Positions 10,694-44,928 of a DNA stretch of 64,000 bases are shown here, one piece after another. Made by a program: the position numbers and the translations under genes. How positions within the stretch are numbered: position 1 is the first letter of the stretch; each line of letters opens with the position of its first letter. Source of the stretch: Clostridiales bacterium (GTDB lineage Bacteria > Bacillota > Clostridia > Saccharofermentanales > DTU023); assembly GCA_004556455.1 (NCBI GenBank), contig SFGY01000002.1, forward strand, positions 85,902-149,901, written 5' to 3'. Under the pieces are notes generated by a model that was given only the letters and a program-made list of their open reading frames with translations, did not search any database and had not been told where the DNA came from.

Positions 10694-10912
10694 ATGGCTG
10701 TTAGTTATAAAAAACTCTTACATCGTATGATTGAAGAAGATATTTCCAATCAGGATTTAATGAGAATGAGCAATATTTCCGCCAACATTATTACGAAACT
10801 ACGCACGGGGCAATATATATCGCTGGAGAAAGTGGAAGGTATCTGCACGGCTTTAAACTGCACACCCAACGATATTTTGGAATTTGTAGCAGAGAAAAAT
10901 CAAAATGATTAA
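10694..10912 (+). CDS. XRE/Cro-type helix-turn-helix regulator (possible R-M controller)
   Basis: 72 aa. HTH ISNQDLMRMSNISANIITKLRTGQYISLEKVEGICTALNCTPNDILEF. Strong RBS aaggaggg. It overlaps the hsdM start by 8 nt. Confidence 0.75.
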   Translation: MAVSYKKLLHRMIEEDISNQDLMRMSNISANIITKLRTGQYISLEKVEGICTALNCTPNDILEFVAEKNQND

Positions 10913-12725
10913 TATAAGAAAACTTGAATCAGAATTATGGGAATCTGCGGATTTATTACGTGCAGGTTCCAAGTTAACATCAAATCAATATTGTATGCCT
11001 GTGCTTGGACTTATTTTCCTACGATACGCATATAGCAGATACAAGATGGTTGAAGCGGAAATCTTAAAAGGACGTCCATCTCGTGGTGGTCAGGTTATGC
11101 CTGTTGAGACAAGTGATTTCGCAGCTAAGAGTGCGTTATATCTTCCTAAGGAAGCACAGTATGATTACTTGTTGAATCTTCCTGAAGATATTTCTTCTGC
11201 AGGACTTGTTAATAAAGACGGTCACTGTATGAATAGTTTAGGAGAAATCGTCAATAACGCTATGCAGCTTATTGAAGATCAGAGTGAACAGTTAGTCGGT
11301 GTACTCCCTAAAAGCTATATGGATTTCTCTGATGAGATTTTATCAGAACTTCTTCGTATATTTAATAACTCCGCGCTTGATGAGGTCGGCGGAGATATTA
11401 TCGGAAGAATCTATGAGTACTTTTTAAATAAATTTGCCAAGAACATCGCATCAGATGATGGTGTTTTCTTTACACCTAAATCTCTTGTAAAGATGATTGT
11501 GAATATTATTGAGCCTACAAGTGGTGTCTTACTGGATCCGGCCTGTGGTTCCGGTGGTATGTTCATTCAGTCCGGGGATTTTGTAAATGCTGCAGGAATG
11601 AACGCTAACAGCACGATGACTTTCTATGGTCAGGAAAAGGTTGAATATAATGCTCAGCTTTGTCTTATGAATATGGCAGTTCATGGACTAACGGGTGTTA
11701 TTAAATCCGGTGATGAAGCTAACAGCTTTTATCACGATGCTCACAACCTTGATGGTTGCTGCGATTATGTGATGGCAAATCCACCTTTCAATGTAGATAA
11801 GGTAAAGGCGGAATCATGTGAAAGTGCGAAACGTTTGCCTTTTGGTATGCCAGGCATTAATAAAAATAAAGAAGTTGGAAACGCTAATTATCTCTGGATT
11901 TCTTACTTCTACAGTTACCTTAACGAAACAGGTCGTGCGGGTTTTGTTATGGCTTCATCTGCCACAGATAGTCAAGGCAAAGATAAAATCATCAGAGAAA
12001 GTCTTGTTAAAACAGGTCATGTCGATGCGATGATTAGTGTTGGGAATAACTTTTTCTATACCAAATCATTACCCTGCTCTCTCTGGTTTTTTGATAAGGG
12101 AAAGGCTGATGCTATCAAGGACAAGGTTCTTTTCATTGATGCAAGAAATTATTATACAGTCGTTGACCGTACGCTTAACGAATGGTCTGAATGGCAACTT
12201 AAGAATATGAATGCGATTGTATGGCTTTATCGTGGAGAAATTGATAAATACTCTGCTCTTCTTCATGAATACCGCTCTGCTCTGGGTAGTGATAAACCTT
12301 TCGCAGAACAGGTACACGAATTATCAGAGAAAGCAAAAGCACTTCGTTCAGAAGCAAAGAAAGCCGTTGAATCAGCTGAAAAGCGTGAAAAGAAAAAGAC
12401 CCAGGAAGTCTACGATACAAAGCTTGCTGAACTTACTGAAATTCTCACAATAGCTAAGGAAGCAAACTGGCTCTATGAAAAATTCGGCGAAGGCGTTTAT
12501 GCTGATGTCCTCGGTCTTTGTAAGCTAGCATCCATTTCTGAGATTGAAGAAAAGGGCTGGTCACTTACTCCTGGAGCTTATGTAGGTGTGGCACCCATTG
12601 AAGATGATGGCGTGGACTTTGAAGAACGCATGGCTGAAATCCATCGTGAATTATTGTCATTACAGGCTGAATCAAATGACTTGATGGATACCATCTCACA
12701 GAATATGAAGGAGATGGGGTTATGA
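10905..12725 (+). CDS. hsdM: Type I restriction-modification methyltransferase subunit
   Basis: 606 aa. HsdM N-terminal domain (LWESADLLRAGSKLTSNQYCMPVLGLIFLRY). SAM motif LLDPACGSGGMF. Catalytic VMANPPFN. Confidence 0.9.
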   Translation: MINIRKLESELWESADLLRAGSKLTSNQYCMPVLGLIFLRYAYSRYKMVEAEILKGRPSRGGQVMPVETSDFAAKSALYLPKEAQYDYLLNLPEDISSAGLVNKDGHCMNSLGEIVNNAMQLIEDQSEQLVGVLPKSYMDFSDEILSELLRIFNNSALDEVGGDIIGRIYEYFLNKFAKNIASDDGVFFTPKSLVKMIVNIIEPTSGVLLDPACGSGGMFIQSGDFVNAAGMNANSTMTFYGQEKVEYNAQLCLMNMAVHGLTGVIKSGDEANSFYHDAHNLDGCCDYVMANPPFNVDKVKAESCESAKRLPFGMPGINKNKEVGNANYLWISYFYSYLNETGRAGFVMASSATDSQGKDKIIRESLVKTGHVDAMISVGNNFFYTKSLPCSLWFFDKGKADAIKDKVLFIDARNYYTVVDRTLNEWSEWQLKNMNAIVWLYRGEIDKYSALLHEYRSALGSDKPFAEQVHELSEKAKALRSEAKKAVESAEKREKKKTQEVYDTKLAELTEILTIAKEANWLYEKFGEGVYADVLGLCKLASISEIEEKGWSLTPGAYVGVAPIEDDGVDFEERMAEIHRELLSLQAESNDLMDTISQNMKEMGL

Positions 12726-13957
12726 GTTTTAATGAAGAATTATTAGATGATTACATTGATATACTCTCTGGTTTCGCTTTTAAAACAAAAGATTTTGTAG
12801 ATAAAGGCGTACCTATTATTAAAATAAAGAATATTAGTCCTCCTTGTGTAACATTAGATGACTTAACATATGTTTCGAATGAGGTGGCTGAAAAACAAAA
12901 GAAATATATTCTTTCCTATGATGATGTATTGATTGCTATGACTGGATCTCATATTAATCAGTGGGCATCTGTAGTAGGCCGTGTTGCAAGAGTAAAGTAT
13001 TATGACTCAACATTATTAAACCAGCGTGTAGGAAAAATAACCATCAAGGATAATGCCGAAGCTGATATAAACTATATCTATTATTATCTTTCTCAGGATA
13101 CGGTAAAAATTGAACTTGCTACTAAAGCAGGAGGTGCTGCAAATCAAGCAAATATAAGTCCAGCACACATTAAAGGTCTATCCTTTCCTTGTCCTGATTT
13201 AGCAACGCAGAACAAAATAGGTAACATACTAAAATCCTATGATGACCTAATCGAAAACAACCAAAAACAAATCAAACTCCTCGAAGAAGCCGCAAAGAGG
13301 CTCTACAAGGAATGGTTTATTGATTTGCATTTTCCGGGATATGAGGATGTGGAGATTGTCGATGGTGTGCCTGATGGATGGACAAAAGATAGAGCAGAAT
13401 GCTTTTTCAAAATTACTATTGGGAAAACGCCACCAAGAGCAGAGAAGCAATGGTTTGTAAATGGAAATGACGGAATTCCATGGATTTCAATATCTGATAT
13501 GGGAAATGCAGGTGTATTCACTTTTAAGACAAGTGAAGGATTAACCGAAGAAGCCATAAAGAAACATAAAATGAAAATTGTTCCGTCTGGAACTATTTTC
13601 GTTAGCTTCAAGTTGACAGTTGGACGAGTTGCAATAGCGACAACAGAAATGTGTACAAACGAAGCAATTGCTCATTTTTATGTTAATGATTCTTTACAGG
13701 CATATACATACTGTTATTTGAGCAATTTTGAATATGATACATTAGGAAATACATCGTCAATTTCAAAAGCTGTAAATTCGAAAATAATAAAGGCTATGCC
13801 ATTTATAATGCCGTCGCAAGGCATAGTTGAAAAATTTTCAGCGATTGTATCCCCTATTTTAAGTGAGATAAAAGTAAACCAAAAAATGTGCAATTATTTG
13901 TCTGAAGCCCGTGACCGCTTATTACCTAAACTGATGAGTGGAGAAATCAAAGTGTAA
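12722..13957 (+). CDS. hsdS: Type I R-M specificity subunit (two target-recognition domains)
   Basis: 411 aa. ATGA overlap with hsdM. Central conserved helix IENNQKQIKLLEEAAKRLYKEWFIDLHFPG and C-terminal LSEARDRLLPKLMSGEI are typical HsdS spacers. Confidence 0.85.
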   Translation: MSFNEELLDDYIDILSGFAFKTKDFVDKGVPIIKIKNISPPCVTLDDLTYVSNEVAEKQKKYILSYDDVLIAMTGSHINQWASVVGRVARVKYYDSTLLNQRVGKITIKDNAEADINYIYYYLSQDTVKIELATKAGGAANQANISPAHIKGLSFPCPDLATQNKIGNILKSYDDLIENNQKQIKLLEEAAKRLYKEWFIDLHFPGYEDVEIVDGVPDGWTKDRAECFFKITIGKTPPRAEKQWFVNGNDGIPWISISDMGNAGVFTFKTSEGLTEEAIKKHKMKIVPSGTIFVSFKLTVGRVAIATTEMCTNEAIAHFYVNDSLQAYTYCYLSNFEYDTLGNTSSISKAVNSKIIKAMPFIMPSQGIVEKFSAIVSPILSEIKVNQKMCNYLSEARDRLLPKLMSGEIKV

Positions 13958-13959
13958 TC

Positions 13960-14340
13960 ATGTCTACTTTTAGTAAAAAGGAATTGATAGAATGTGAACG
14001 TTTAATTGGCATTCGCATTATGCAAGAGGATGCAGAATCGATATATTCTTTGCTGCAAACTGAAAGAGATCCTATTTTTATAATGGAAATTATTCCTTAT
14101 TATGCATTGTTTGTCCAGTCATGCCAAGAGTATATGGGAGAAGATTTATTTCCTAAATCAATAGCGAAAAATTTTAAAGATATTCGCAACCACATAAAGG
14201 CGTATACTGATTGTTTTAGCAAATCTCAAAAACGTGTAGCAGCAATTGATGATGCACAAGATAGAGATTTTAAAGAACAACTCAGATTTGGATTTCTAAA
14301 AAAAAAATATTCATCTGAATTTAGGAACGTACTGGACTGA
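13960..14340 (+). CDS. Hypothetical protein, R-M cargo slot (possibly the N-terminal part of a split gene)
   Basis: 126-aa ORF starting 3 nt after the hsdS stop. It ends 33 nt after an A10 run (14298-14307). I recognise no family. Confidence 0.5.
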   Translation: MSTFSKKELIECERLIGIRIMQEDAESIYSLLQTERDPIFIMEIIPYYALFVQSCQEYMGEDLFPKSIAKNFKDIRNHIKAYTDCFSKSQKRVAAIDDAQDRDFKEQLRFGFLKKKYSSEFRNVLD

Positions 14341-14383
14341 AGAAAAACAGATAATCGGTAATACTCAGCAGTTAGCAGATTTT

Positions 14384-15052
14384 TTGTCGGTCGAAAATGT
14401 ATTAGGCCCTAAAATAAAGGAGAAGAATTACCAAATAGGTTACCATATAGGCTCATTTGTTGCCTCATTCAGAAAAGGATTAGCAAATTCTTCAAATTTC
14501 CCTATTATCGAAAGAGAACGTAAATCAATCTCAATTAACTATTATTGCGATATAAACACAAATAAGAGAAATAATTTGCTTTTTAAAGGTCAAAAGAAGG
14601 AAATAAATTTATTCTATTTACATTTATTGTGCAATATGAATTTCGTTAAGTACATATTGAGACCATTGTTCCTAGATGGAAATATATGGGTTTTCAGGGT
14701 GGAATATATCGTTTCTTATTACACATTACGTGCGTTGGAACGTTTAAAAAACTATACTGAAAACAACAAGGATATAACTATTGAGAGCAAAGAAATCTAC
14801 GATATTCTTAAGTTAGGTAAAGTATTATTTAAGACAAAAGTACGTAATTGTATGATGCATTATAATCTTGAAAATGCAGGAGTCATATCTTTCGAAAATA
14901 TTGATAAACCATTTTATGGAATTATTGAAAAGTGCTTTAATGGAAAGAGTTATCAAGAATATTTAATAGAATTGCATGGGTTGTCTAATATGATAATCGA
15001 TTTTTTAAATAACCAATTTGATTTTTCTAATGTGAAGTTAGAAAGCTTTTAA
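14384..15052 (+). CDS. Hypothetical protein with HEPN-like R-x4-H motif (possibly the C-terminal part of a split gene)
   Basis: 222-aa track ORF with a TTG start and no convincing RBS or ATG. Its frame is open back to the TAA at 14297-14299, which lies inside the A10 run. It contains KVRNCMMHYNL (R-N-x3-H). Confidence 0.5.
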   Translation: MSVENVLGPKIKEKNYQIGYHIGSFVASFRKGLANSSNFPIIERERKSISINYYCDINTNKRNNLLFKGQKKEINLFYLHLLCNMNFVKYILRPLFLDGNIWVFRVEYIVSYYTLRALERLKNYTENNKDITIESKEIYDILKLGKVLFKTKVRNCMMHYNLENAGVISFENIDKPFYGIIEKCFNGKSYQEYLIELHGLSNMIIDFLNNQFDFSNVKLESF

Positions 15053-15069
15053 AGCAAATGGGAGCAACT

Positions 15070-18000
15070 ATGAGCTACGATTATTCCGAAAATATATTAG
15101 TACAAGAAAGTGCCGGTAATCTGCTCCGTGATGAATTAGGCTGGGATGTTCAGTTTGCCTATAATACAGAAGTGCTGGGTAAGAATGGCTCTTTCGGTCG
15201 AGAAAGTTATAAAGATATTCTGCTTGTTCGCTATTTTAAAGAGGCACTTAAAAAGTTCAATCCGTGGATAAATGAAAATCAGATCATTGAGGCACAGCAG
15301 CTTTTAGAAAAGAGATTGTCTACTTCTTCACTGCTACAGCTAAATGAAGAAAAATATTTTTTAATTCGTGATGGTATTCCTGTCACTGTTAAAAAACCAA
15401 ATGGACAAACTGAAACAAAAAAGGCTGCAGTGATTGATTTTCAGAACCCTGATAACAACTATTTCCTGGCAATAAAGGAATTAAAAATCCATGGAGATTT
15501 ATATCGCAGAAGAACTGACATTGTAGGCTTCGTAAATGGTATTCCACTTCTCTTTGTAGAACTCAAGAAAAATACTGTAGATGTTCAGAATGCCTATGAT
15601 GATAACTACACCGACTATCAAGATACCATTCCTCATTTGTTCTACTACAATGCATTCCTAATGCTTTCTAATGGAACAGAGGCTAAGGTCGGTACACTTG
15701 GCAGTAAGTTTGAATTCTTCCATGAATGGAAGCGTCTTGCCGAAGAAGACCAAGGAAGTGTTGCTTTAGAAACAATACTTCGTGGTATTTGTAAGAAAGA
15801 AAACTTTCTTGATTTATTTGAGAACTTTATCTTATTTGACCATTCTAAGGGTCTCACTGCAAAGATACTTGCTCGTAACCACCAGTATCTCGGTGTAAAC
15901 GAAGCGATGAAAGCCTATGCTGAAAGAAAACTTAATGACGGTAAGCTTGGTGTATTCTGGCATACACAGGGTTCAGGCAAGAGCTATTCAATGGTATTTT
16001 TTGCAAAAAAGGTGCGAAGAAAGATAGAAGGAACCCCAACCTTCGTTATCCTTACAGACCGTGATGAACTGAATACGCAGATTAGTGATACCTTTGAGAA
16101 TTGTGGACTTCTTGGTAAAGATATAAAAGCGGCTCAATTTATTGCGACAAGTGGAGATGACCTTGTTGAAAAACTGCAAGGTAATCCAAGCTTCATATTC
16201 ACTCTTATTCAGAAGTTTAATAAACCAAATGCAAAGCCTATATATCCTGATCACGATATTATTATCATGTCGGATGAAGCGCATCGAAGCCAGTATGGTA
16301 TCTTCGCTGATAACATGATAAAGCTGTTACCTACTGCTGCACGCATCGGCTTTACAGGTACGCCATTACTTTCGAGTGATAATATCACTGCTCGTACATT
16401 TGGTGGCTATGTGTCAGTTTATGACTTCAGGAGAGCCGTTGAAGATGGTGCTACAGTACCTCTTTATTACGAAAATCGTGGTGAGAAGATTGTAGATTTA
16501 CACAACCCTGAAATCACGAATCAAATCCTTGATGCTATCGAAAATGCTGACCTTGATGTTGACCAACAGGACAAGCTGGAAACCGAATTTGCAAAAGAGA
16601 TACACCTGCTCACAGCCGAGCCTAGACTGAAATCTATCGCCCAAGATTTTGTGAAACACTACTCTGACTTGTGGACAAGCGGAAAAGCTATGTTTGTTTG
16701 CTTAAACAAAGTTACCTGTGTCCGTATGTATAATTATGTTCAGGAATATTGGAAAGCAGAAATCAAAATCCTAAAAGCTAGTTTAAAAGATGCCGGTCAA
16801 CAAGAGGCTCTTGAACTTGAAAGAAAAATCAAATGGATGAAAGAAACTGAAATGGCTGTTGTAATCAGTCAGGAACAGAACGAAATCCAAACCTTCAAAA
16901 AGTGCAATTTAGACATAAAGACTCACCGTACTAAGATGGAAAAGCGTGAGTTAGATAAAGAATTTAAGGATTCAAAAAATCCGCTCCGTGTTGTATTTGT
17001 ATGTGCAATGTGGCTTACCGGCTTTGATGTTAAATGTCTTTCATGCTTATATCTCGATAAACCATTAAAGGCTCATACACTTATGCAGACCATAGCACGT
17101 GCCAACCGTGTAAGCGAAGGCAAAAGCAATGGTTTGATTATAGATTATATTGGAATCGTAAAAGCGTTAAGAAAGGCTCTTGCAGATTATACTGCACATG
17201 CAGGTGGAAATGGAGGTTCAAACCCTACAATAGATAAGGACGAACTTATTGCTCGTATTATCGAAACTATTGATAAAGCAGATGAATTCTTGAGTGAGCA
17301 TGATTTTGATTTGGAAAGGCTTATCAATGCTTATGATTTTATGAAACTATCCTACCTTCAGGAAGCAGCTAATGCAGTATGCGGTTCGATTGAGGATAAG
17401 AAAACATATACTACATATGCATCTGAATTGAATCGTCTAATGAAATATACTGACAGAGATGATATCAGCGGTCACACTCGTAAACAGTATGAAGCTATTT
17501 CCGCTATTAATGCTGAATTACAGAAAAAACGTAAACACATCAATACCACTGATCTTATGATTGAAATCAATGGGATTATAAGTGCGTATGTTAAGATTCA
17601 GCATACACCTGCTATGCTGGGTGAAGAATCATGCAGATTTGATATCAGTGCAATTGACTTTGACCTTCTTCGCAGAGAGTTTGCAAAGGTTAAGAAAAAG
17701 AATCTGCTTTTAAAGGAGTTAGAGGAAGTAATCCGGCAGAAACTTGACAGTATGCTTTTTGCTAATCCTGATCGAATGAACTATTACGAACGCTATCAGC
17801 AAATTATCGATGATTATAATAGTGAGCAGGACAGAGCCACCATTGAGAAGACTTTCATGGAATTGATGGATTTGGCTAATCAAATGAGCGATGAAGAACA
17901 ACGCTATATCCGTGAAGGCTTTACAAGTGATGAGGAACTTTCTCTTTATGATATGTTATTCCGTGACGATTTGAGTAAAGCGGACATCAAGAAACTCAAA

Positions 18001-18213
18001 GAAGTTGCAGCATCACTACTACAGAAAATAAAAACTAAAATTGCAGAATTTGACCACTGGACAGATAAGCAGGAAACAAAAGCAGCTATTGATAATCTTA
18101 TTCGTGATACCCTTTGGGAAGAATTGCCGGAGTGTTACGATGAGCTTAGTATCTCTTTGTATCGTCAGCAGATTTATGAATATGTATATACTCGATATAA
18201 AGAAGTTGCTTAA
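15070..18213 (+). CDS. hsdR: Type I restriction enzyme R subunit (helicase/endonuclease)
   Basis: About 1047 aa from MSYDYSEN (RBS gggag); the track start at 15058 is also possible. Nuclease region DIVGFVNGIPLLFVELKK. Helicase motifs HTQGSGKS, IIIMSDEAHRSQ, GFTGTP. C-terminal TQTIARANRV. Confidence 0.9.
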   Translation: MSYDYSENILVQESAGNLLRDELGWDVQFAYNTEVLGKNGSFGRESYKDILLVRYFKEALKKFNPWINENQIIEAQQLLEKRLSTSSLLQLNEEKYFLIRDGIPVTVKKPNGQTETKKAAVIDFQNPDNNYFLAIKELKIHGDLYRRRTDIVGFVNGIPLLFVELKKNTVDVQNAYDDNYTDYQDTIPHLFYYNAFLMLSNGTEAKVGTLGSKFEFFHEWKRLAEEDQGSVALETILRGICKKENFLDLFENFILFDHSKGLTAKILARNHQYLGVNEAMKAYAERKLNDGKLGVFWHTQGSGKSYSMVFFAKKVRRKIEGTPTFVILTDRDELNTQISDTFENCGLLGKDIKAAQFIATSGDDLVEKLQGNPSFIFTLIQKFNKPNAKPIYPDHDIIIMSDEAHRSQYGIFADNMIKLLPTAARIGFTGTPLLSSDNITARTFGGYVSVYDFRRAVEDGATVPLYYENRGEKIVDLHNPEITNQILDAIENADLDVDQQDKLETEFAKEIHLLTAEPRLKSIAQDFVKHYSDLWTSGKAMFVCLNKVTCVRMYNYVQEYWKAEIKILKASLKDAGQQEALELERKIKWMKETEMAVVISQEQNEIQTFKKCNLDIKTHRTKMEKRELDKEFKDSKNPLRVVFVCAMWLTGFDVKCLSCLYLDKPLKAHTLMQTIARANRVSEGKSNGLIIDYIGIVKALRKALADYTAHAGGNGGSNPTIDKDELIARIIETIDKADEFLSEHDFDLERLINAYDFMKLSYLQEAANAVCGSIEDKKTYTTYASELNRLMKYTDRDDISGHTRKQYEAISAINAELQKKRKHINTTDLMIEINGIISAYVKIQHTPAMLGEESCRFDISAIDFDLLRREFAKVKKKNLLLKELEEVIRQKLDSMLFANPDRMNYYERYQQIIDDYNSEQDRATIEKTFMELMDLANQMSDEEQRYIREGFTSDEELSLYDMLFRDDLSKADIKKLKEVAASLLQKIKTKIAEFDHWTDKQETKAAIDNLIRDTLWEELPECYDELSISLYRQQIYEYVYTRYKEVA

Positions 18214-37718: not shown

Positions 37719-38948
37719 ATGGCAAAACTCATTGCTCGGCCTGAATATTTGCGCCAACTGATTCAACACAAAGACGTCGATTTGGTGAAAATCGTAAGCG
37801 GTATTCGGCGTTGTGGGAAGTCATCACTATTAGAATTATTCCGGCAAGATTTAATAGAGACAGGCGTTCCTGAGGATCATATCCTTCATATGAATTTGGA
37901 ATCCCTGCGATATCGTACACTTTCGGATTATCTATCCTTCTATGACTATGTCAGTGAACGTATTCCAAAGGAGGGGAAGACCTATCTCATCTTCGACGAA
38001 GTTCAGAACGTGAAACATTGGGAGAAGGCTATTGAGTCATTTCGGCTGGATTTCGATGTCGATATTTATATTACCGGCTCGAATGCATATCTGCTTTCAA
38101 CGGAGTTTTCCACACTGCTTTCCGGTCGGTATGTAGAAATCCGTATGCTGCCACTCTCTTTCAAGGAGTTTTTAACGTTCTATGAATTTGCTCCTTCCGT
38201 TTCTCTCGAAGAGAAATTTCAAAAATTTTTGAAATTTGGTGGCATGCCAGTTTTGCGAGAATATAACTTTAACGAAGTGAGAATCAATCAAGCATTAGAG
38301 GGTATATATTCAACAGTTGTGCTGCGGGATATTTTGCAGCGAAACAGCTTTGCTGATCCCTCCACGCTACAGAAGATCATACTCTTTCTCTGCTCGAACA
38401 TCGGAAGTTTCAATTCTCCAAACAGCATTGGCGCTGTCCTTTCACAAGAAGGTGACATCGACCGCCGAAAGAGCAAAAGCATCGCTGGAAAAACGGTGGA
38501 GAAATATATGGCCATGCTCAGCAGCGCGTATATCTTTTATCCCGTTGGGAGATATGACATCAAAGGCAAGCAGCTTTTAAAGACTTTGGGAAAAAATTAT
38601 ATTGTGGATTTGGGAATTCGTAATTTGCTCCTTGGCTATCGAGATGCAGATCGTGGACATATTTTAGAAATTATTGTATTTCTGGAGTTGCTCAGACGCG
38701 ATTATCACGTCTCCATCGGCAAAGTTGGAGATACCGAAATTGACTTTGTTTGCGAAAAACCAGATCACAAAATGTACATTCAAGTCACAGAAAGTATGCA
38801 GCTTCCAGAAACACGGCGACGAGAATTAGCACCGCTTCAAAAGGTCGCAGACAACTATGAAAAAATGATCTTATCTATGGATCCCAGTTTTATTCAATCG
38901 TATGATGGCATAAAATCAATCTATTTATTGGATTTTCTGCTGTCCTGA
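37719..38948 (+). CDS. AAA-type ATPase (AAA_14 + DUF4143-like architecture)
   Basis: 409 aa. Walker A GIRRCGKSSLL. Walker B YLIFDEVQNV. C-terminal EIDFV region, which is restriction-endonuclease-like in this family. Sits in an AT-rich patch. Confidence 0.7.
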   Translation: MAKLIARPEYLRQLIQHKDVDLVKIVSGIRRCGKSSLLELFRQDLIETGVPEDHILHMNLESLRYRTLSDYLSFYDYVSERIPKEGKTYLIFDEVQNVKHWEKAIESFRLDFDVDIYITGSNAYLLSTEFSTLLSGRYVEIRMLPLSFKEFLTFYEFAPSVSLEEKFQKFLKFGGMPVLREYNFNEVRINQALEGIYSTVVLRDILQRNSFADPSTLQKIILFLCSNIGSFNSPNSIGAVLSQEGDIDRRKSKSIAGKTVEKYMAMLSSAYIFYPVGRYDIKGKQLLKTLGKNYIVDLGIRNLLLGYRDADRGHILEIIVFLELLRRDYHVSIGKVGDTEIDFVCEKPDHKMYIQVTESMQLPETRRRELAPLQKVADNYEKMILSMDPSFIQSYDGIKSIYLLDFLLS

Positions 38949-39185: not shown

Positions 39186-39276
39186 GGAAGCGTAGCGAAG
39201 AGGCCGTAACGCGCCGCTCTCGAAAAGCGGTTGCCGGGTGACCGGCACGTGGGTTCGAATCCCACCGCTTCCGCCA
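39186..39276 (+). tRNA. tRNA-Ser (anticodon CGA), CCA encoded
   Basis: Acceptor GGAAGCG/CGCTTCC plus discriminator G plus CCA. Anticodon stem CCGCT/AGCGG with loop CTCGAAA. Long variable arm TTGCCGGGTGACCGGCAC. T-arm GTGGG-TTCGAAT-CCCAC. 91 nt. Confidence 0.9.
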
Positions 39277-39288
39277 CAGTATTTTTCA

Positions 39289-39337
39289 GAAAATGCGAAA
39301 CCCCTGAAACGCATGTTTTCAGGGGTTTTCGTTTTTT
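39289..39337 (+). terminator. Rho-independent terminator after tRNA-Ser; also copy 1 of an imperfect direct repeat
   Basis: gaaaatgcgAAACCCCTGAAAcgcatgTTTTCAGGGGTTTtcgtttttt forms a stem-loop followed by a T-run. The sequence recurs at 41192-41257. Confidence 0.8.
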
Positions 39338-39614
39338 AACAAATGTTTAATATTGGGGTTATAACGCTAAATTTGGGTTGCTGGTTGGGTTACTGGACCC
39401 TGCTCTTAATGATATTTAAAAATGTCGTGTCGATGATTGTGGATTCTTTAAATTTTTACATCTTTCTGGTCACTTTCAGTGCTTGTAATGGGGCTATAAA
39501 CGGGGTTAGCAGAATTTAATGTTAATATCCGACCATTTATATAAACTCTCTTAACAGCTGCCTCGCCCTCAATTTAACGTTACTATGATATTTAAGGACA
39601 GATCAAAGGAAGGG

Positions 39615-39719
39615 ATGCTGCCAAAAGTGATAGAAATAATAATGCTGATCTTGGTAGTCATCCAAACAGTTATCGGACTGCTAAACTACCTTGATCAGCA
39701 CAACAAAAACGACAAGTAA
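39615..39719 (+). CDS. Tiny hydrophobic peptide A1 (34 aa), holin-like/type I toxin-like
   Basis: MLPKVIEIIMLILVVIQTVIGLLNYLDQHNKNDK*: one TM helix plus a polar N-Y-x-x-Q-H-x-K tail. Below the ORF-track size cutoff. Followed by hairpin gtagggagcgggaactccctac. Confidence 0.45.
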   Translation: MLPKVIEIIMLILVVIQTVIGLLNYLDQHNKNDK

Positions 39720-39785
39720 GTCGCACAAAGTAGGGAGCGGGAACTCCCTACCCCGACTTTACAAAATATAAGGAGAAAAGACAAT

Positions 39786-39875
39786 ATGAAAGTTATTATT
39801 TTAATTTTGATGATTGTCAATCTTGGGTTTTCAATTTTGAATTATTGGGAGAATCACAAACATGGACGGAAGTAA
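39786..39875 (+). CDS. Tiny hydrophobic peptide A2 (29 aa)
   Basis: MKVIILILMIVNLGFSILNYWENHKHGRK*. RBS aaggag 12 nt upstream. The 3' end overlaps the start of the next ORF (39862). Confidence 0.5.
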   Translation: MKVIILILMIVNLGFSILNYWENHKHGRK

Positions 39876-40098
39876 AAAGCGCAAAGCAGTTTACAATCCT
39901 GATGCCGACAAGCGTTGGAGAGAAAAGAACAAAGAGCGTGCAAGGTATTTAACGGACCGGACCTCCTGCAGACGTTTTTTGCGAGACAAAGCCACGGAAG
40001 AAGATCTTGAGGAAATGGAGCAGCTTATAGCCGAAAGACGCCAACAACTAAAAAATGTCCCCCATGTTCCCTTGAGATGTGATACATTGGTGTTGTGA
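39862..40098 (+). CDS. Small basic helical protein P1 (78 aa), paralog of 40999..41187
   Basis: MDGSKKRKAVYNPDADKRWREKNKERARYLTDRTSCRRFLRDKATEEDLEEMEQLIAERRQQLKN... aligns to P2 with shared residues W, N, E, AR, R, R, F, R, A, D, EE, LI, ER and L, about 40% identity by hand. Confidence 0.55.
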   Translation: MDGSKKRKAVYNPDADKRWREKNKERARYLTDRTSCRRFLRDKATEEDLEEMEQLIAERRQQLKNVPHVPLRCDTLVL

Positions 40099-40216
40099 AA
40101 TCAGATACTGTTAATGGCGCGAAGTCTACACTAAGTATTAATCTGGAAACTGGTGTGGTTACTACGATCCATAAAACGCATTCAAAGCTGATTGAAAAAA
40201 TAGAAGGGAGCAACAA

Positions 40217-40444
40217 ATGATTTTTCATCTAAATAAAGATGAAAGAAAATTGCTCCAAGATTTTAATATAGATTTTCGCTCTGACTTTGATTACTCTGAC
40301 GAAGAAGCGTTTGCTTTACTGGATCAAGTTCATGACGCTGAGATTTTCTACGCTCAGGACTCCGATACAAATGGACGATCACGCTATATGGCAAATTTCC
40401 ATGCAGATTTAGCTGATAAAATACAATCTCTTATACCAGGATAA
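40217..40444 (+). CDS. Small acidic hypothetical protein (75 aa), immunity-protein-like
   Basis: MIFHLNKDERKLLQDFNIDFRSDFDYSDEEAFALLDQVHDAEIFYAQDSD... RBS gaagggag. I recognise no family. Confidence 0.45.
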   Translation: MIFHLNKDERKLLQDFNIDFRSDFDYSDEEAFALLDQVHDAEIFYAQDSDTNGRSRYMANFHADLADKIQSLIPG

Positions 40445-40639
40445 AATCAACAGTATTAATTTTGAAGTACCGCTCGCCAGGGCGGTTTTTATTTGCCTGA
40501 AAATAGCAATATGCACAAAAACAAGGGCTGAAATTTGTGCAAATAATATGTGAAAACGGCTTGATGATATATAACACCGGCGTTATAACACGGACAGAAC
40601 TTAGAGATAAGTTCAAAACAAAAGAAAGGAGGAAGGTCA

Positions 40640-40729
40640 GTGGATATAGGCATAATAATAGCCCTGGTCAGTCTGATAGTTGAGATCATCGACCTGATCG
40701 TTAACTATAAGGACAATCACAAAGACTAG
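40640..40729 (+). CDS. Tiny hydrophobic peptide B1 (29 aa, GTG start)
   Basis: (M)DIGIIIALVSLIVEIIDLIVNYKDNHKD*. Strong RBS aaaggagga 8 nt upstream. It has the same N-Y-x-D-N-H-K tail as A1/A2. Followed by hairpin gcaggggcgtaagcccctgc. Confidence 0.5.
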   Translation: MDIGIIIALVSLIVEIIDLIVNYKDNHKD

Positions 40730-40786
40730 GGCCAATGCAGGGGCGTAAGCCCCTGCTATCTGCCTATACCATAGCCTAAAAACAGT

Positions 40787-40873
40787 ATGAATGCAACTTT
40801 GACGGTGATACTTATTCTGAATCTGATCGTTAGCTGTTTGAATTTGTGGCTGACATTTAAGCGGTGCAAGTAA
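40787..40873 (+). CDS. Tiny hydrophobic peptide B2 (28 aa)
   Basis: MNATLTVILILNLIVSCLNLWLTFKRCK*. No clear RBS. A third related frame (..IIKIIAALAFCTAAVALLIVKLKERDKHDKDQ*, ending 41019) lacks a canonical start. Confidence 0.35.
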   Translation: MNATLTVILILNLIVSCLNLWLTFKRCK

Positions 40874-40998
40874 GCTTGCTTGTACTGAGCTTTTAGCACC
40901 GTATGACTTTGGACGTATAATTAAGATTATCGCAGCGCTGGCCTTTTGCACCGCTGCAGTAGCCCTGTTGATCGTTAAATTGAAAGAGAGAGACAAAC

Positions 40999-41187
40999 AT
41001 GACAAAGACCAGTGAAGCACAAAAACGCGCGTCAAGAGCTTGGGAAGCGCGAAATCCTGAAAAAGCCAGAAAGGATCGCTACAGAAGAACGGCGCGGCTC
41101 TTCATCCGCAGCCATGCCGACATGGACGATATAGAAGAACTTTTGACGTTAATTGAAGAGCGAAAAGCCGCCCTGAGTAAGCAATAA
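40999..41187 (+). CDS. Small basic helical protein P2 (62 aa), paralog of 39862..40098
   Basis: MTKTSEAQKRASRAWEARNPEKARKDRYRRTARLFIRSHADMDDIEELLTLIEERKAALSKQ. Its start overlaps the end of the preceding hydrophobic frame, exactly as in module A (..aaacATGga.. versus ..aaacATGac..). Confidence 0.6.
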   Translation: MTKTSEAQKRASRAWEARNPEKARKDRYRRTARLFIRSHADMDDIEELLTLIEERKAALSKQ

Positions 41188-41191
41188 TGTT

Positions 41192-41257
41192 GAAAAATGC
41201 GAGATCGAGCGGCTCGCCCTATCTTGTGAAACCCCTGAAAACGCAAATTTTCAGGGG
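41192..41257 (+). repeat. Copy 2 of the tRNA-Ser-downstream repeat (terminator-like hairpin with a 26-nt insertion)
   Basis: gaaaaatgcga[gatcgagcggctcgccctatcttgtg]AAACCCCTGAAAAcgcaaaTTTTCAGGGG. Compare 39289-39325. Confidence 0.7.
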
Positions 41258-41424
41258 CATTTAATTTTTAAAAGCCACGAAAAGCTCACAGCATTCAGCT
41301 GATAATTTTCAGAGACTTTTCCTGTCAAGGAATTTTCAAGGCAGTCGTATAATGACTCCCATTATCTTTGATTCATCAGCCAGGTTGAACGCGACAATAT
41401 AAAAAAGGCAGAGAGCGCCACAAT

Positions 41425-41667
41425 TTACAGCAGCTCGCGCAGGACGAGATCGCTGACGCCGGGGGAAACACGTTCGAGCCGCAGGATGCGGGGATCGTGG
41501 GAATAGTTTTCTTCGATGAATTTTTGCAGCGAATCGCCATGGTGATAGCCATGGATCAGGCGAATGCGGTAAAGGCCGTAGACATGTTTCAGAGCCGCTT
41601 CGATTTTAATCTGGGCTTGATAACGGTTGAGGCCGTGCAGGTCGATTTCTTTCATGGCGCTGGGCAT
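41425..41667 (-). CDS. Small Smr-domain protein (80 aa from MPSAMKEIDLHG; the track start at 41727 gives 100 aa)
   Basis: IDLHGLNRYQAQIKIEAAL...IRLIHGYHHGDSLQKFI matches the Smr pattern (LDLHG ... i.HG.G...). The ATG at 41667 lies 9 nt after the upstream stop. Confidence 0.65.
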   Translation of the reverse strand: MPSAMKEIDLHGLNRYQAQIKIEAALKHVYGLYRIRLIHGYHHGDSLQKFIEENYSHDPRILRLERVSPGVSDLVLRELL

Positions 41668-41675
41668 AACGTGCC

Positions 41676-43274
41676 TTAAAAAACCGAAGGGCGATTGATT
41701 CGCCGCTCGAACTCCGACATATCCCATTGATTGCGGATGGCGATGCCCAGGGGGAGGTCGGGATAAATCCCATAGCGCTGGAAAAAGGCTTCCAGGGGCA
41801 TTTTGCTTTCCTGCAGGTATTTGATAATTGCTGCGAGAAAGTGCCGGGTGTTGGGCATGGAGAGTTCCGAGATCAGGGCCAGGTGCGGCCAGTCAAAGCG
41901 CTGAGGGCCAAGCCTCAGGGTTTTAAACCATTGTTCCGTTTGCTCAGACTCCTGGGGGGAGAGGCTGCCGGTCTGTCTGGCCAGAATATGGCAGAGCTCC
42001 GCCAGGCCTTTTTGTACGGTCGAGCGAGGGTAGGCAAATTGCAGCGTGAGCCAGCCCTGCAGGTAGAGATAGTGGCTGGCCCGCATCATGATGATGGAGA
42101 TGAGTCGATCAACTTCGGCGCCCCGTGTTAGCGTAGCAAGGGCAGGGAAGAGGACGGCGAGATCCCGGTAGTTGAGAGAAAATGCAAACTCGCTCAGGGC
42201 GTGCTTGTCTGCACAATGGTTGATCTGGGCAATGAGCCAGGTACGATGGGCCTGTTGCTGGGCCAGCTGCATTTCGCGCGGGAGGGGCAACGACTGCCGG
42301 CCAAAGGTGACGGCGTCGGCAAAGCTTTCCAGGCTGGAGTTGCTGCGCGGCACAAAAAATGGTGGGCGCAGCTTTCCGCTCTTGATCGGGCGCATTTGCA
42401 GACCCGACGGAGAAGCCACCAAGCTGTTTTGGCTGTCCTTTATACGCTCGCTGTCGTGACCTTCCCTGCTTTTGGCAGCGGCAGATGGAAGAGGCATTCC
42501 CTTGCTGATGTCTGAGTTTTCCGGGGGCGTGAAGTGACTGTCGGAGACAGATGCTGAGCCTGCCGTTTTCTGCGTATCAAGCTTATCAAGCGTGTTAGCA
42601 GCTCTTTTCAGTCCGGAGGATCTATCCTCTTTTTTGCTTCCGTCCGGGTGCTCGCTCGCACCTTCACTCAGGACGTCTCCAGTTCTTTGAGACTTTCCAG
42701 ACCGCTCTATATCCCCTGGCTTTTGAAAGTCATCAAGCCTCTGGGCTTCACCAGGCCTTTGAAATTCCATCGGTCTTTGAATTTTCCCAGACTGCTGAGA
42801 CTGCAGAGACTGTAGCGGTCTCTTAATTTCACCAGCCCTTAGAGATTCCTTTGGTCTTTGAACTTCCCCAGGCTGTTGAGGCTCGGCTGAGCTTTGTATT
42901 TCCCAGGAGTTATGAGATTCTTCAGTTTGTTGAGACTGGTCGGCCTCCAGGGCAGTTGATATTAACTCAGCTTTCAGCCCTGCTTCCCCGTCCTGCTCCT
43001 CGGCAAACCAGGTAGCTTTGGGCTGTAACCTGACCCTGCGAACGCCAGAAGGCGAACCCCCAAGAACGCCTGAAGGTGAAACTTCGGCAAATGAAACTCC
43101 AGAAGGCCAAACGCCAGAAGGCGATCCCCCGGCAGGCGAAACTCCGGAAGTGACTTTTTCTTCACGCGGCGCAGGCTTTTTGCTTTCCTCAGCAAAAAGA
43201 GAGCGGGCGAAGTCCCGCATGGGATTGCGTTGGGCAGCCAGAAAGGGATCGGGAAACTCGGGATGCTGGGGCAT
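41676..43274 (-). CDS. Hypothetical 532-aa protein: ~300-aa P/S/G/Q-rich repeat region plus ~230-aa globular C-terminal domain
   Basis: N-terminal repeats (SPAGGSPSGVWPSGVSFAEVSPSGVLGGSPSGV; EVQRPKE/EIKRPLQ/KIQRPME/FQRPGE/FQKPGD). The C-terminal domain runs REMQLAQQQAHRTWLIAQINHCAD...FFQRYGIYPDLPLGIAIRNQWDMSEFERR. Its RBS (aaggag) lies inside the end of the upstream gene. Confidence 0.6.
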   Translation of the reverse strand: MPQHPEFPDPFLAAQRNPMRDFARSLFAEESKKPAPREEKVTSGVSPAGGSPSGVWPSGVSFAEVSPSGVLGGSPSGVRRVRLQPKATWFAEEQDGEAGLKAELISTALEADQSQQTEESHNSWEIQSSAEPQQPGEVQRPKESLRAGEIKRPLQSLQSQQSGKIQRPMEFQRPGEAQRLDDFQKPGDIERSGKSQRTGDVLSEGASEHPDGSKKEDRSSGLKRAANTLDKLDTQKTAGSASVSDSHFTPPENSDISKGMPLPSAAAKSREGHDSERIKDSQNSLVASPSGLQMRPIKSGKLRPPFFVPRSNSSLESFADAVTFGRQSLPLPREMQLAQQQAHRTWLIAQINHCADKHALSEFAFSLNYRDLAVLFPALATLTRGAEVDRLISIIMMRASHYLYLQGWLTLQFAYPRSTVQKGLAELCHILARQTGSLSPQESEQTEQWFKTLRLGPQRFDWPHLALISELSMPNTRHFLAAIIKYLQESKMPLEAFFQRYGIYPDLPLGIAIRNQWDMSEFERRINRPSVF

Positions 43275-43280
43275 CGGTGA

Positions 43281-44837
43281 TTACTCCTTTTTGCCGGGGC
43301 GAAGCGCCACGGGGAGGGCATCGACCGCATCTCGAATCGCGGAAGCTGTAAAGATAAGACGCTCCACAACTTCGGCAAGTCCCTGGTCGAAGCTTTTCAG
43401 AGTTTGATTTACATAGACCGCAGACTCCTGAGTGAAATTCTTGCTGCTCAGGCGAAGCGTCTCGCTGATCTCCTTCAGCTCGCTGATCAGATTGCTCAGG
43501 CGTTCATGGAGATCATCATTTTGACGCCCCTGTTCATCCTGCATCTCATGGATCAGCTGCAAAATTTCACTGCTGCCCTGGAGGTTCTGACTAAGAACGG
43601 TCGTCGAGCTTTCCATGGAGATGGCGAGCTGCTTGATCTTTTCGCTGAGGCCATATTCTTCACCGGCATAGGTTTTGCTCATGGCTTTGCTGCTTTCGCT
43701 GACCACGCGGATATTATCCGAGAGCTCCAGCATTTCGTTGGCCAGATCGTTTTTGGCCTGACCCATCAGCAGCAGCGAGTCACGGATGTCTTTATTGAGG
43801 GCGATGTTTTCGTCGCGTGAAGTTTGAAGGACATCAATACTGCTCTGGACGAAGGATTGTGTATCGGCCATCACCCGATTAAGACGATCCAGCTCCATCT
43901 TGAGGGGATTGAGTTCGCGCGCCAGAGAGGCGGCAACAGAGGTAGAAAAGGTTCCGGCCAGGCTTTCCATCCCCTGCATCTGACGTTGATCCAGATGGGT
44001 CGCAAGGTCGGCGAGGACATTGGCAGACTGCCTTATGGGAGGCGAAATTTCATCTTTCATGATGCGGGAAACCGCTTTATAAATGCCGCTGCCAAAGTCG
44101 GCGTCGGCCATTTTCTGAGCAATGCCCTGGAAGTCGCGAAAACTTTCACTCACCCGCTGCTCATGCTCGGCCAGGCTTTCGACCAGCAAGGCGGCCCCGC
44201 GGTTATCGTCGTAGACCGGAAGCACTTCGCAGATCTGCGTGCGGAAACCCTCCTGAGCCTGGCTCAGTTCACGCCTCAATTCAAGAGAGCCGTTGGCCAG
44301 CACTGCGGCAATAATACAGGCGAAGACCAGAGGAATCAGTGCAAGACCCTTCTGGAAGCCGACAGCGCTGATGGCGATAAAAAGGTAAAGGAAAAGTGCA
44401 GACAGCAAACCCAGTGAGGCGATGGTGATGGAAGGGCTAAAACTCAGGGCGGAGCGGGCTTCGGCGGAAATATAATTCTCACTCATGGAAAGTCCGTCGA
44501 GCGGGGGCATCCAGCGCCCGCCATAACGCAGCACACTGGCGCGTTTAAGAGCCTGCCAGGCGCTGCTCAGGCGCTTTTGTCCTAGAGCTTCAATCGCTTC
44601 TGTGACCGCCGGAAGGTTTTCCATGCTGCAGTTTTCCATCTTTTCCAGATGGCTGCTGAGTTCTTCTGTGGCTTCAGCGAGTGCCGCGCGTGCCGCAGAG
44701 ATTTTACGCTGATAGATGAACCCGCAAATCACTAAAACCAGGGGCATCCCCATGGCAAAAAAGGCAACAATGACCTGAGATAAGCGGGCAGGTGAAATGG
44801 CGCTCTGAACGCTCAGAAAAAATGGAGCAGCAATCAT
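43281..44837 (-). CDS. Hypothetical 518-aa membrane protein: TM1, ~100-aa loop, TM2-TM3 hairpin, ~330-aa helical tail
   Basis: Start MIAAPFFLS with RBS gaggaggt; the track start at 44876 is upstream. TMs: VIVAFFAMGMPLVLVICGFIY, ITIASLGLLSALFLYLFIAISAV and GLALIPLVFACIIAAVLANG. The tail is S/L/E/Q-rich and looks heptad-like. Confidence 0.6.
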   Translation of the reverse strand: MIAAPFFLSVQSAISPARLSQVIVAFFAMGMPLVLVICGFIYQRKISAARAALAEATEELSSHLEKMENCSMENLPAVTEAIEALGQKRLSSAWQALKRASVLRYGGRWMPPLDGLSMSENYISAEARSALSFSPSITIASLGLLSALFLYLFIAISAVGFQKGLALIPLVFACIIAAVLANGSLELRRELSQAQEGFRTQICEVLPVYDDNRGAALLVESLAEHEQRVSESFRDFQGIAQKMADADFGSGIYKAVSRIMKDEISPPIRQSANVLADLATHLDQRQMQGMESLAGTFSTSVAASLARELNPLKMELDRLNRVMADTQSFVQSSIDVLQTSRDENIALNKDIRDSLLLMGQAKNDLANEMLELSDNIRVVSESSKAMSKTYAGEEYGLSEKIKQLAISMESSTTVLSQNLQGSSEILQLIHEMQDEQGRQNDDLHERLSNLISELKEISETLRLSSKNFTQESAVYVNQTLKSFDQGLAEVVERLIFTASAIRDAVDALPVALRPGKKE

Positions 44838-44928
44838 GCGACTTACCTCCTCAAAACTCCCTTTAGATAAAAGCACGTTGTGCGTGTAGTCCTCGTTATT
44901 ATAACACTTTGGTTCAGGCTCTTTTTCA

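Follow-up and report, generated by a model that had tools for sequence, protein, structure and literature searches.

Two tandem gene modules in a Clostridiales bacterium, each combining tiny membrane-peptide genes with a gene for a small basic protein, are probably surviving Aca13-type autoregulated operons within an islet of prophage remains; taken as a whole, this is the best explanation we can offer for the locus. The modules lie in a 64,000-nucleotide (nt) stretch, here called the window (contig SFGY01000002.1 of GenBank assembly GCA_004556455.1, positions 85,902 to 149,901, forward strand), at window positions 39615-40098 (module A) and 40640-41187 (module B). In each, single-helix peptides of 28 to 34 amino acids (aa) are accompanied by a GC-rich hairpin and by a small basic protein that is helical, and the Kyte-Doolittle 15-residue maxima of all four window peptides are 2.5 to 3.0 (one transmembrane [TM] helix plus a charged tail). 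A first-pass annotation, made from the sequence alone, had described two tandem modules of shared layout, and we found all of its open reading frames (ORFs) and hairpins in place (Table 1). It had also described the ATG of the basic protein as overlapping the preceding peptide frame. This is so in module A, where the aca13-A ATG lies 13 nt inside pepA2 (the overlap is the last 14 nt), but in module B the overlapping frame is that of pepB3, not pepB2. The two basic proteins are paralogs, as proposed (39% identity over 49 aa; E 2e-8).

The same annotation could not assign the basic protein to any described system; our searches identify it, by homology, as a member of the Aca13 family of non-helix-turn-helix (non-HTH), anti-CRISPR-associated repressors, and this applies to both copies. 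Both proteins matched phrog_2277, a PHROG of unknown function (E 5.5e-19 for A and 2.6e-16 for B); Pfam and NCBIfam gave no match to either, nor did any HTH Pfam model. A family profile retrieved 654 cluster representatives at E <= 0.001 and matched one solved chain, PDB 8ye6_B ("A32," that is, AcrIIA32), over residues 92-139 (E 1.5e-16); searched singly, aca13-A and aca13-B also matched this chain (residues 90/92-139; E 5.3e-9 and 3.8e-3). The C-terminal domain of AcrIIA32 (approximately residues 90-141) is Aca13, an anti-CRISPR-associated repressor of Streptococcus phages (PMC8934645, PMC12282945). Electrophoretic mobility shift and reporter assays have shown that Aca13 represses anti-CRISPR (acr) promoters through an 18-bp inverted repeat located between -35 and -10, with DNA contacted by a coiled helix that is not an HTH (PMC12282945). 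An AlphaFold2 model of the aca13-A product has three helices (13-22, 24-43, and 46-65) with a predicted local distance difference test (pLDDT) score of 83 and block means of 91 to 97 over residues 11-60; a Foldseek search with this model returned no PDB analogue. From family homology, the aca13-A and aca13-B products are predicted to bind such an inverted repeat and to repress transcription.

To place the modules in context, aca13-like loci were fetched from viral, genome, and metagenome collections, giving a smaller set of 52 distinct genes and a larger set of 169 distinct loci (cited individually by L numbers). A common promoter lies 5' of these genes, TTGACA-n3-4-[CT]ATAxx-N6-xxTAT[GA], in which the right arm overlaps a TATAAT -10 box. 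A perfect inverted repeat of the family form is present in 61/169 distinct loci, and the density of such repeats is 0.72/kb upstream of aca13-like genes versus 0.036/kb elsewhere. Arm positions 5-6 vary between subfamilies, always symmetrically (AC/GT, GT/AC, TA/TA, AT/AT, AA/TT, CG/CG). Neither this operator nor the prophage relic described below was part of the first-pass annotation. In module B, the promoter reads TTGATG-ata-TATAACaccggcGTTATA-AC, and the expected 18-bp inverted repeat is present between -35 and -10. It belongs to the TATAAC class, whose 17 loci have conserved arms and variable spacers; L208 carries a symmetric arm change. The intact A-type operator can be read in phage contigs L005 and L008 as TTGAC(A/G)-CATATT/CGTATT-N6-ACTATG-ATATTATAA, with the register TTGACA-TATT-AACATT-ACTATG-ATATTATAA. 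We had considered a palindrome in L008, TGACGTATTAACGTCA, as the A-type operator and dropped it, because alignment with L040 and L005 fits a CATAGT-N6-ACTATG register better. A degenerate copy of the module B operator also occurs at window positions 39343-39370, just after the attachment-site (att)-like hairpin near the tRNA gene (17/23 bases versus 40567-40589; palindrome GTTATAAC); it may be a third, eroded promoter.

The first-pass annotation had called for a search of the basic-protein family and its neighborhood in other genomes, and the peptide linkage proved to recur widely. A TM mini-ORF abuts 16/52 distinct aca13-like genes versus 34/994 control ORFs (3.4%; Fisher P 2e-10), and in the larger set a TM ORF of <=60 aa ends at the aca13 start in 63/169 distinct loci, or 20/45 clusters at 70% identity. 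An ORF ending exactly at the aca13 start is 12-fold commoner than for control ORFs. The typical operon carries two peptides, the first often with a strong Shine-Dalgarno (SD) sequence and the second abutting or overlapping aca13. Recognizable homologs of pepB1, pepB2, and pepA2/B3 occur in other loci. In several families, differences between peptide homologs concentrate at third codon positions, as they do between pepB1 and its homologs in L074, L091, L092, and L103. Closer pairs show at least as many synonymous as nonsynonymous changes (6:1 for L092/L208, up to 23:14 in a two-TM family, and 4 to 1 for pepA2 between L005 and L008). These codon-position patterns support coding of the peptides, in keeping with the original description of small single-pass membrane ORFs linked to the basic protein. 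Other cargo occupies the same slot in some family members, namely, soluble 39- to 45-aa helical peptides or acidic 80- to 112-aa proteins. One conserved soluble peptide of this size (MTNEQF.T.L.MIIEII...EEA.K.I..L) is found in L001 (3799-3918), L011, L013, L040, and L104; it matched no known family, and here too a hairpin and an antisense extended -10 come after the gene.

A GC-rich hairpin lies 5 to 15 nt past the first peptide (pep1) stop in nearly all loci examined that have a pep1-pep2 pair, with a loop that is mostly of the GNRA or UUCG type. The counterpart of hairpin B is kept as GAGGGGC-GAAA-GCCCCTC in L091, L074, and L103. Just downstream of the hairpin, 21/42 distinct loci carry an extended -10 (TGnTATAAT-like; score >=7) on the minus strand, compared with 1/42 on the plus strand and 5% of shuffles; a perfect antisense extended -10 occurs in 8 loci versus 0.4% of shuffles. 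With a stricter definition of the antisense unit (TG, at least 5/6 hexamer bases, and a hairpin within 3 to 23 nt), the promoter-plus-hairpin unit was found on the minus strand in 29/169 loci and on the plus strand in 2 loci, with 0.006 expected per region. Site scans of L079, L205, and L053 agree, and in L053 and L205 a minus-strand terminator-like hairpin follows the promoter. From this pattern we infer a short cis-antisense RNA directed against the 3' end of the pep1 message, and the layout of hairpin and opposite-strand promoter resembles that of a type I toxin-antitoxin (TA) locus. Antisense RNAs across the hairpins, suggested in the first-pass annotation, gain a family-level promoter motif, while the boxes in the window itself are weak. 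The sister contigs L067 and L068 carry TGCTATAGT at the place equivalent to the module B antisense -10. A permissive Rfam search of window positions 39280-41320 gave only subthreshold, chance-level matches (e.g., FinP, 19.5 bits, module A minus strand). We also noted a plus-strand motif, TTATACC(A), in the interval from hairpin to pep2; it lies about 30 nt ahead of pep2 and is strongly conserved in L079, L091, L218, and others. We read it as the complement of the antisense -10, though it may have a plus-strand role.

The 1.9 kb holding both modules is, from its sequence, the remains of one or more prophages at tRNA-Ser. It forms a low-GC islet between att-like direct repeats (42 nt; 74% identity between the left copy and 41230-41271) amid housekeeping genes (ECF transporter, CTP synthase, and IMP dehydrogenase). 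In L068 the tRNA 3' end is duplicated in the right repeat as well, which is expected of an attR. Window positions 39574-40106 share 94% identity with phage contigs L005/L008, in which a sigma-like late regulator lies on one side of the cassette and HNH/packaging genes on the other. Positions 40106-40498 are 89% identical at the nucleotide level to phage contigs L227-L230 (a 74-aa gene and the end of a 346-aa gene, both from the head module of the same kind of phage), and tblastn of the 346-aa phage protein against this relic gave E 5e-16. Module A is joined to the head-module fragment at 40106, which implies an internal deletion of about 2.8 kb. The 75-aa acidic ORF at 40217-40444, which had no match in an annotated phage collection, was weighed as an anti-CRISPR (Acr) candidate and rejected: it shares 86% protein identity with a phage head/packaging-module gene and is preceded by a fragment of that gene's 346-aa neighbor. 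Many other aca13 loci adjoin tRNA or tmRNA genes, and tandem pairs of aca13 modules recur in L047, L053, L055, L063, and L092. In Streptococcus prophages, the aca13 family lies beyond the lysin, beside paratox and abortive infection (Abi) genes. A hairpin nearly identical to that of the left att-like repeat (CCTGAAACGCAT(A)TGTTTCAGG; window 39301-39325) occurs in L040 at 4428-4453, 561 nt upstream of aca13. L040 is an unrelated Clostridia metagenome-assembled genome in which this copy adjoins an apparent tRNA fragment, and the att-like hairpin may travel with the element.

Comparison with sister contigs bears on how the modules have been retained. L067, whose flanks are 98 to 99% identical to those of the window, has the same two modules but a different module B peptide segment, in which an intact B3 accompanies a GCAA hairpin and a peptide of 31 aa; relative to L067, window segment 40635-40921 has been replaced. 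L068 (flanks 83 to 93% identical) lacks module A and keeps module B. In the place of module A, L068 has three minus-strand ORFs (1503-2637) whose translations, read by eye, resemble a HicA toxin, a HicB antitoxin, and a SecB-like chaperone. Synonymous to nonsynonymous changes in aca13-B number 4:1 versus L068 and 3:0 versus L067, and its peptide region has been swapped for other intact peptide genes between strains that are 98 to 99% identical. Module B in the window retains an intact operator and promoter with a reshuffled peptide region, and module A has lost its promoter. Two of the few survivors of prophages of about 40 kb are aca13 operons, with peptide genes that were exchanged, not eroded. 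Such retention fits a unit that is useful or addictive to its host better than an anti-defense gene stranded in a dead phage. Within the replaced segment, just 5' of the pepB3 remnant, there is also a promoter-like site (TTAGCA-17-TATAAT, 10/12 matches; 40893-40921, plus strand), which could drive aca13-B independently of the operator-controlled promoter.

We propose that a complete operon, as seen in phage contigs and in part in module B, would begin with a strong sigma-A promoter bearing the 18-bp inverted repeat between -35 and -10, followed by a 5' stem-loop, pep1 with its strong SD, the GC-rich tetraloop hairpin, pep2, and lastly the Aca13 repressor gene, whose start abuts or overlaps the pep2 stop. 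An Aca13 dimer on the inverted repeat would shut the promoter, giving a burst of expression and then tight autorepression, a behavior shown in the literature for the family; translation of the repressor would be coupled to that of the peptides. In many relatives, the conserved opposite-strand motif suggests a promoter firing into the hairpin, and the resulting short antisense RNA against the pep1 message 3' end would act as a second brake. We suggest, tentatively and with rather less confidence than for the operons themselves, that the peptides insert in the membrane and are harmful when overmade, so that the unit may serve as an addiction, exclusion, or abortive-infection module. Such a role would explain how the unit outlived the rest of the prophage.

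Several observations weigh against this reading. Among the AcrIIA32 DNA-contact residues K92, W99, R107, and S111, W99 alone is kept in both window proteins; K92 is replaced by N in A and Q in B, R107 by A in both, and S111 by T in A and R in B. Alignment with L005/L008, where homology to the window begins at 39574, indicates that module A has lost its -35 box and left operator half. Its candidate antisense -10 lacks the TG, and that of module B (TATAGG) lacks the final T. Where an antisense promoter is found in relatives, it often lies only about 10 nt from the hairpin, so that the RNA would be very short unless there is read-through. The pepB3 frame has no start codon in the window, where the sister contigs L067 and L068 have an intact ORF of 34/44 aa, and pepB2 has no SD; together with the missing module A promoter, this suggests that much of the window locus may be silent or decaying. 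Searches of the window peptides against Pfam, NCBIfam, PHROGs, and PADLOC gave nothing above threshold and no family of known function. Finally, the established cargo of Aca13 operons is anti-CRISPR proteins, not toxins.

This last point underlies the rival that survives best, which we nevertheless consider unlikely: that the peptides are anti-defense cargo as in other acr-aca operons, expressed in a burst upon phage entry to block host immunity (perhaps at a membrane-bound component), with Aca13 only limiting the promoter. Every cargo protein so far demonstrated in an Aca13 operon is an anti-CRISPR (PMC8934645, PMC12282945). The promoter and operator are laid out identically, acidic 80- to 112-aa proteins typical of Acrs occupy the same slot in other family members, and in Streptococcus phages the aca13 gene sits in the region downstream of the lysin. 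However, we found no membrane-embedded Acr in the literature searched, and we know of none of 27 to 35 aa. A gene of this kind would be expected to decay once its prophage is dead, yet purifying selection acts on aca13-B and the peptide genes have been replaced by intact ones; in addition, a layer of antisense RNA typifies toxic peptides and not Acrs.

It is improbable that the peptides are ordinary type I TA loci that merely lie beside an unrelated small phage protein. The architecture of a TM helix with a charged tail, the 3' hairpin, and the conserved convergent promoter would all suit such loci, and bsrG, yonT, and txpA are likewise located in prophages. Yet dozens of unrelated lineages have a peptide stop that abuts or overlaps the aca13 start, and the sole strong sense promoter carries the Aca13 operator. 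Nor did the peptides match known type I toxin models, or the RNAs any Rfam antitoxin. The first-pass reading of the peptides as holin-like or type I toxin peptides found no support in hidden Markov model searches, in which the best matches were all far below curated cutoffs: Hol_Tox, E 0.9 (9.9 versus 23.3 bits); PepG1, E 0.32 (10.6 versus 70); and TisB, E 0.016 (15 versus 38). By these searches the window peptides are not members of Fst, TxpA, BsrG, PepA1/G1, TisB, or Hol_Tox, nor of a known holin or Acr family. Peptides of relatives searched against Pfam, NCBIfam, and PHROGs gave none above threshold except the peptide of Streptococcus prophage Javan5, which matched phrog_3399 (unknown function).

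Somewhat harder still to credit is that the mini-ORFs are untranslated, the region from promoter to aca13 being a structured leader RNA and the hydrophobic ORFs a by-product of AT-rich sequence. AT-rich DNA does give hydrophobic ORFs, the antisense strand has TM-like mini-ORFs in 14/52 loci, and pepB2 has no SD. Against this stand the strong SD on many pep1 genes (pepB1 included), the third-position bias and synonymous excess in several peptide families, and the 12-fold excess of exact junctions with aca13. A role as holins or lysis-timing factors is the least probable: these are small membrane peptides in phage genomes with a weak, subthreshold Hol_Tox resemblance, but their scores fall under the Pfam cutoff, the window modules have no lysin within about 2 kb in either direction and are outside any lysis cassette (as are the L005/L008 modules, between late regulator and HNH/packaging genes), and the Javan5 peptides form a separate, oppositely oriented unit beyond the lysin.

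The operons that we favor, autorepressed by Aca13 and carrying membrane peptides, share features with several known systems. Like the acr-aca13 operons of Streptococcus phages and prophages (PMC8934645, PMC12282945), they lie in accessory regions of temperate phages, encode a homologous repressor with small cargo genes placed upstream of aca, and have a promoter with an 18-bp inverted repeat set between its -35 and -10. They differ in cargo, which is one to three membrane peptides of 27 to 60 aa instead of soluble Cas9 inhibitors, in the overlap of the peptide and aca13 frames, and in the presence within the operon of a tetraloop hairpin and, in relatives, of an antisense promoter. Their hosts are Clostridia-like Bacillota, and the window copies are in a dead prophage. 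With the type I TA systems of Firmicutes prophages (bsrG/SR4, yonT/SR6, txpA/RatA, and fst/RNAII) they share prophage location with persistence in relics, peptides of about 30 aa that combine a TM helix and a charged tail, and a structured 3' end; a convergent promoter motif, from which an RNA overlapping that end could start, is a further parallel. Unlike those systems, the window system belongs to none of those families, has a protein repressor in the same operon, and often has two peptides in series, with toxicity only putative. Hol_Tox (PF16935) putative holin-like toxins are of similar size, with a hydrophobic core and basic C-terminal tail, but the best matches (E 0.9 for the window peptides and 0.005 for L066) are under the 23.3-bit cutoff.

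The immI region of phage P22 (Pant-arc-ant, with sar antisense RNA) offers a functional analogue: a tiny non-HTH repressor of the same operon turns off a strong early promoter, and a small antisense RNA arises between cistrons. Here the repressor gene occupies the last position instead of the first, membrane peptides take the place of an antirepressor as cargo, and the proteins are unrelated. In tisB/istR-1 and dinQ/agrB, a membrane peptide toxin is held down by LexA together with a small RNA; LexA is a global host regulator encoded elsewhere, whereas the repressor here would be a dedicated one in the same operon. Three features appear to go beyond the literature that we searched: the TM ORFs abutting aca13, the tetraloop hairpin after pep1, and the opposite-strand extended -10 directed toward the hairpin.

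Table 1. Features of the two modules and the surrounding islet (window coordinates)
Feature	Positions	Strand	Remarks
tRNA-Ser(CGA), putative integration target	39186-39276	+	ARAGORN; Rfam tRNA 56 bits
tRNA terminator hairpin, left att-like direct repeat	39297-39339	+	Terminator scan
Module A promoter/operator, truncated	39570-39594	+	Right half-site ACTATG (39582-39587) and damaged -10 (TATTTA) remain
pepA1	39615-39719	+	34-aa single-TM peptide, polar tail; alternative GTG start 39627; conserved in L005/L008
Candidate antisense small RNA A	39699-39770	-	Weak -10 TATATT (39770-39765), complement of hairpin A, second hairpin (39724-39709), T-run
Hairpin A, GC-rich, intercistronic	39730-39751	+	Just 3' of pepA1 stop; -13.4 kcal/mol, z -2.3
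pepA2	39786-39875	+	29-aa single-TM peptide; SD AAGGAG 39770-39775
aca13-A	39862-40098	+	78-aa basic protein; C-terminal tail unlike phage copies
Prophage relic	40101-40498	+	Last 39 codons of 346-aa head/packaging gene, intact 75-aa gene (40217-40444), terminator (40469-40496)
Possible sigma-like late-regulator 3' remnant	40507-40544	+	Precedes module B; 38 nt, 84% identity to L001 3658-3695 (weak evidence)
Module B promoter and putative Aca13 operator	40561-40589	+	-35 TTGATG, 18-bp inverted repeat TATAAC-ACCGGC-GTTATA (40570-40587), -10 TATAAC
5' untranslated region stem-loop, GAGA loop	40597-40614	+	Near predicted mRNA 5' end; fold z -5.2; pairing kept in L091 despite different stem sequence
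pepB1	40640-40729	+	29-aa TM peptide, GTG start, strong SD AAGGAGGA; "MEIDTIIALAGLIV.." family
Hairpin B, GTAA tetraloop, intercistronic	40737-40756	+	-23.3 kcal/mol, z -4.2
Degenerate antisense extended -10, toward hairpin B	40763-40771	-	TGGTATAGG
pepB2	40787-40873	+	28-aa TM peptide; homolog of aca13-abutting peptides in L091 and of pep1 in L067/L068
pepB3 remnant (third TM peptide frame)	40923-41015	+	KIIAALAFCTAAVALLIVKLKERDKHDKDQ, then stop; overlaps aca13-B ATG (..aaaCATGac..)
aca13-B	40999-41187	+	62-aa basic protein
Right att-like repeat and terminator hairpin	41230-41271	+	Terminator scan, fold, repeat comparison

Other features of the window lie outside the islet. Just upstream of tRNA-Ser, positions 37719-38948 (plus strand) encode a 409-aa AAA_14/DUF4143 ATPase matching the PADLOC candidate defense family PDC-S01 (E 6e-151); related contig L068 lacks this gene, which suggests a separate insertion. 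A complete type I restriction-modification system (HsdM, HsdS, two small unassigned ORFs, and HsdR) occupies 10905-18213 (plus strand). On the other side of the islet lie two large ORFs (532 and 531 aa; 41676-44876, minus strand), which neither Pfam nor PADLOC matched and one of which includes a repetitive low-complexity stretch; their end is overlapped by a small Smr-domain protein (41425-41727, minus strand).

Aca genes serve as beacons for anti-CRISPR discovery, and about a third of the sampled Aca13-family operons carry tiny membrane peptides instead. If this proportion holds up, guilt-by-association searches will mislabel these peptides, and a class of small phage proteins that has gone unexplored comes to light. 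Bacillota prophages may, we suggest tentatively, harbor a widespread and previously undescribed three-layer Aca13 module, in which tiny membrane peptides, one or two in number, are joined by a strong autorepressed promoter and by a cis-antisense small RNA against an intercistronic tetraloop hairpin. These peptides would then be either a new phage toxin or exclusion factor, hybridizing the logic of type I TA and acr-aca systems, or the first membrane-acting anti-defense peptides, and the module would be addictive enough to outlast the prophage. By placing a dedicated protein repressor, apparent antisense RNA, and coupled translation around membrane peptides of 30 aa, it would link two fields so far studied apart, anti-CRISPR regulation and type I TA systems, and loci with defined operators and promoters make up a concrete, easily testable set. 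The module would also offer an explanation for the survival of such cassettes in prophage graveyards beside tRNA genes.

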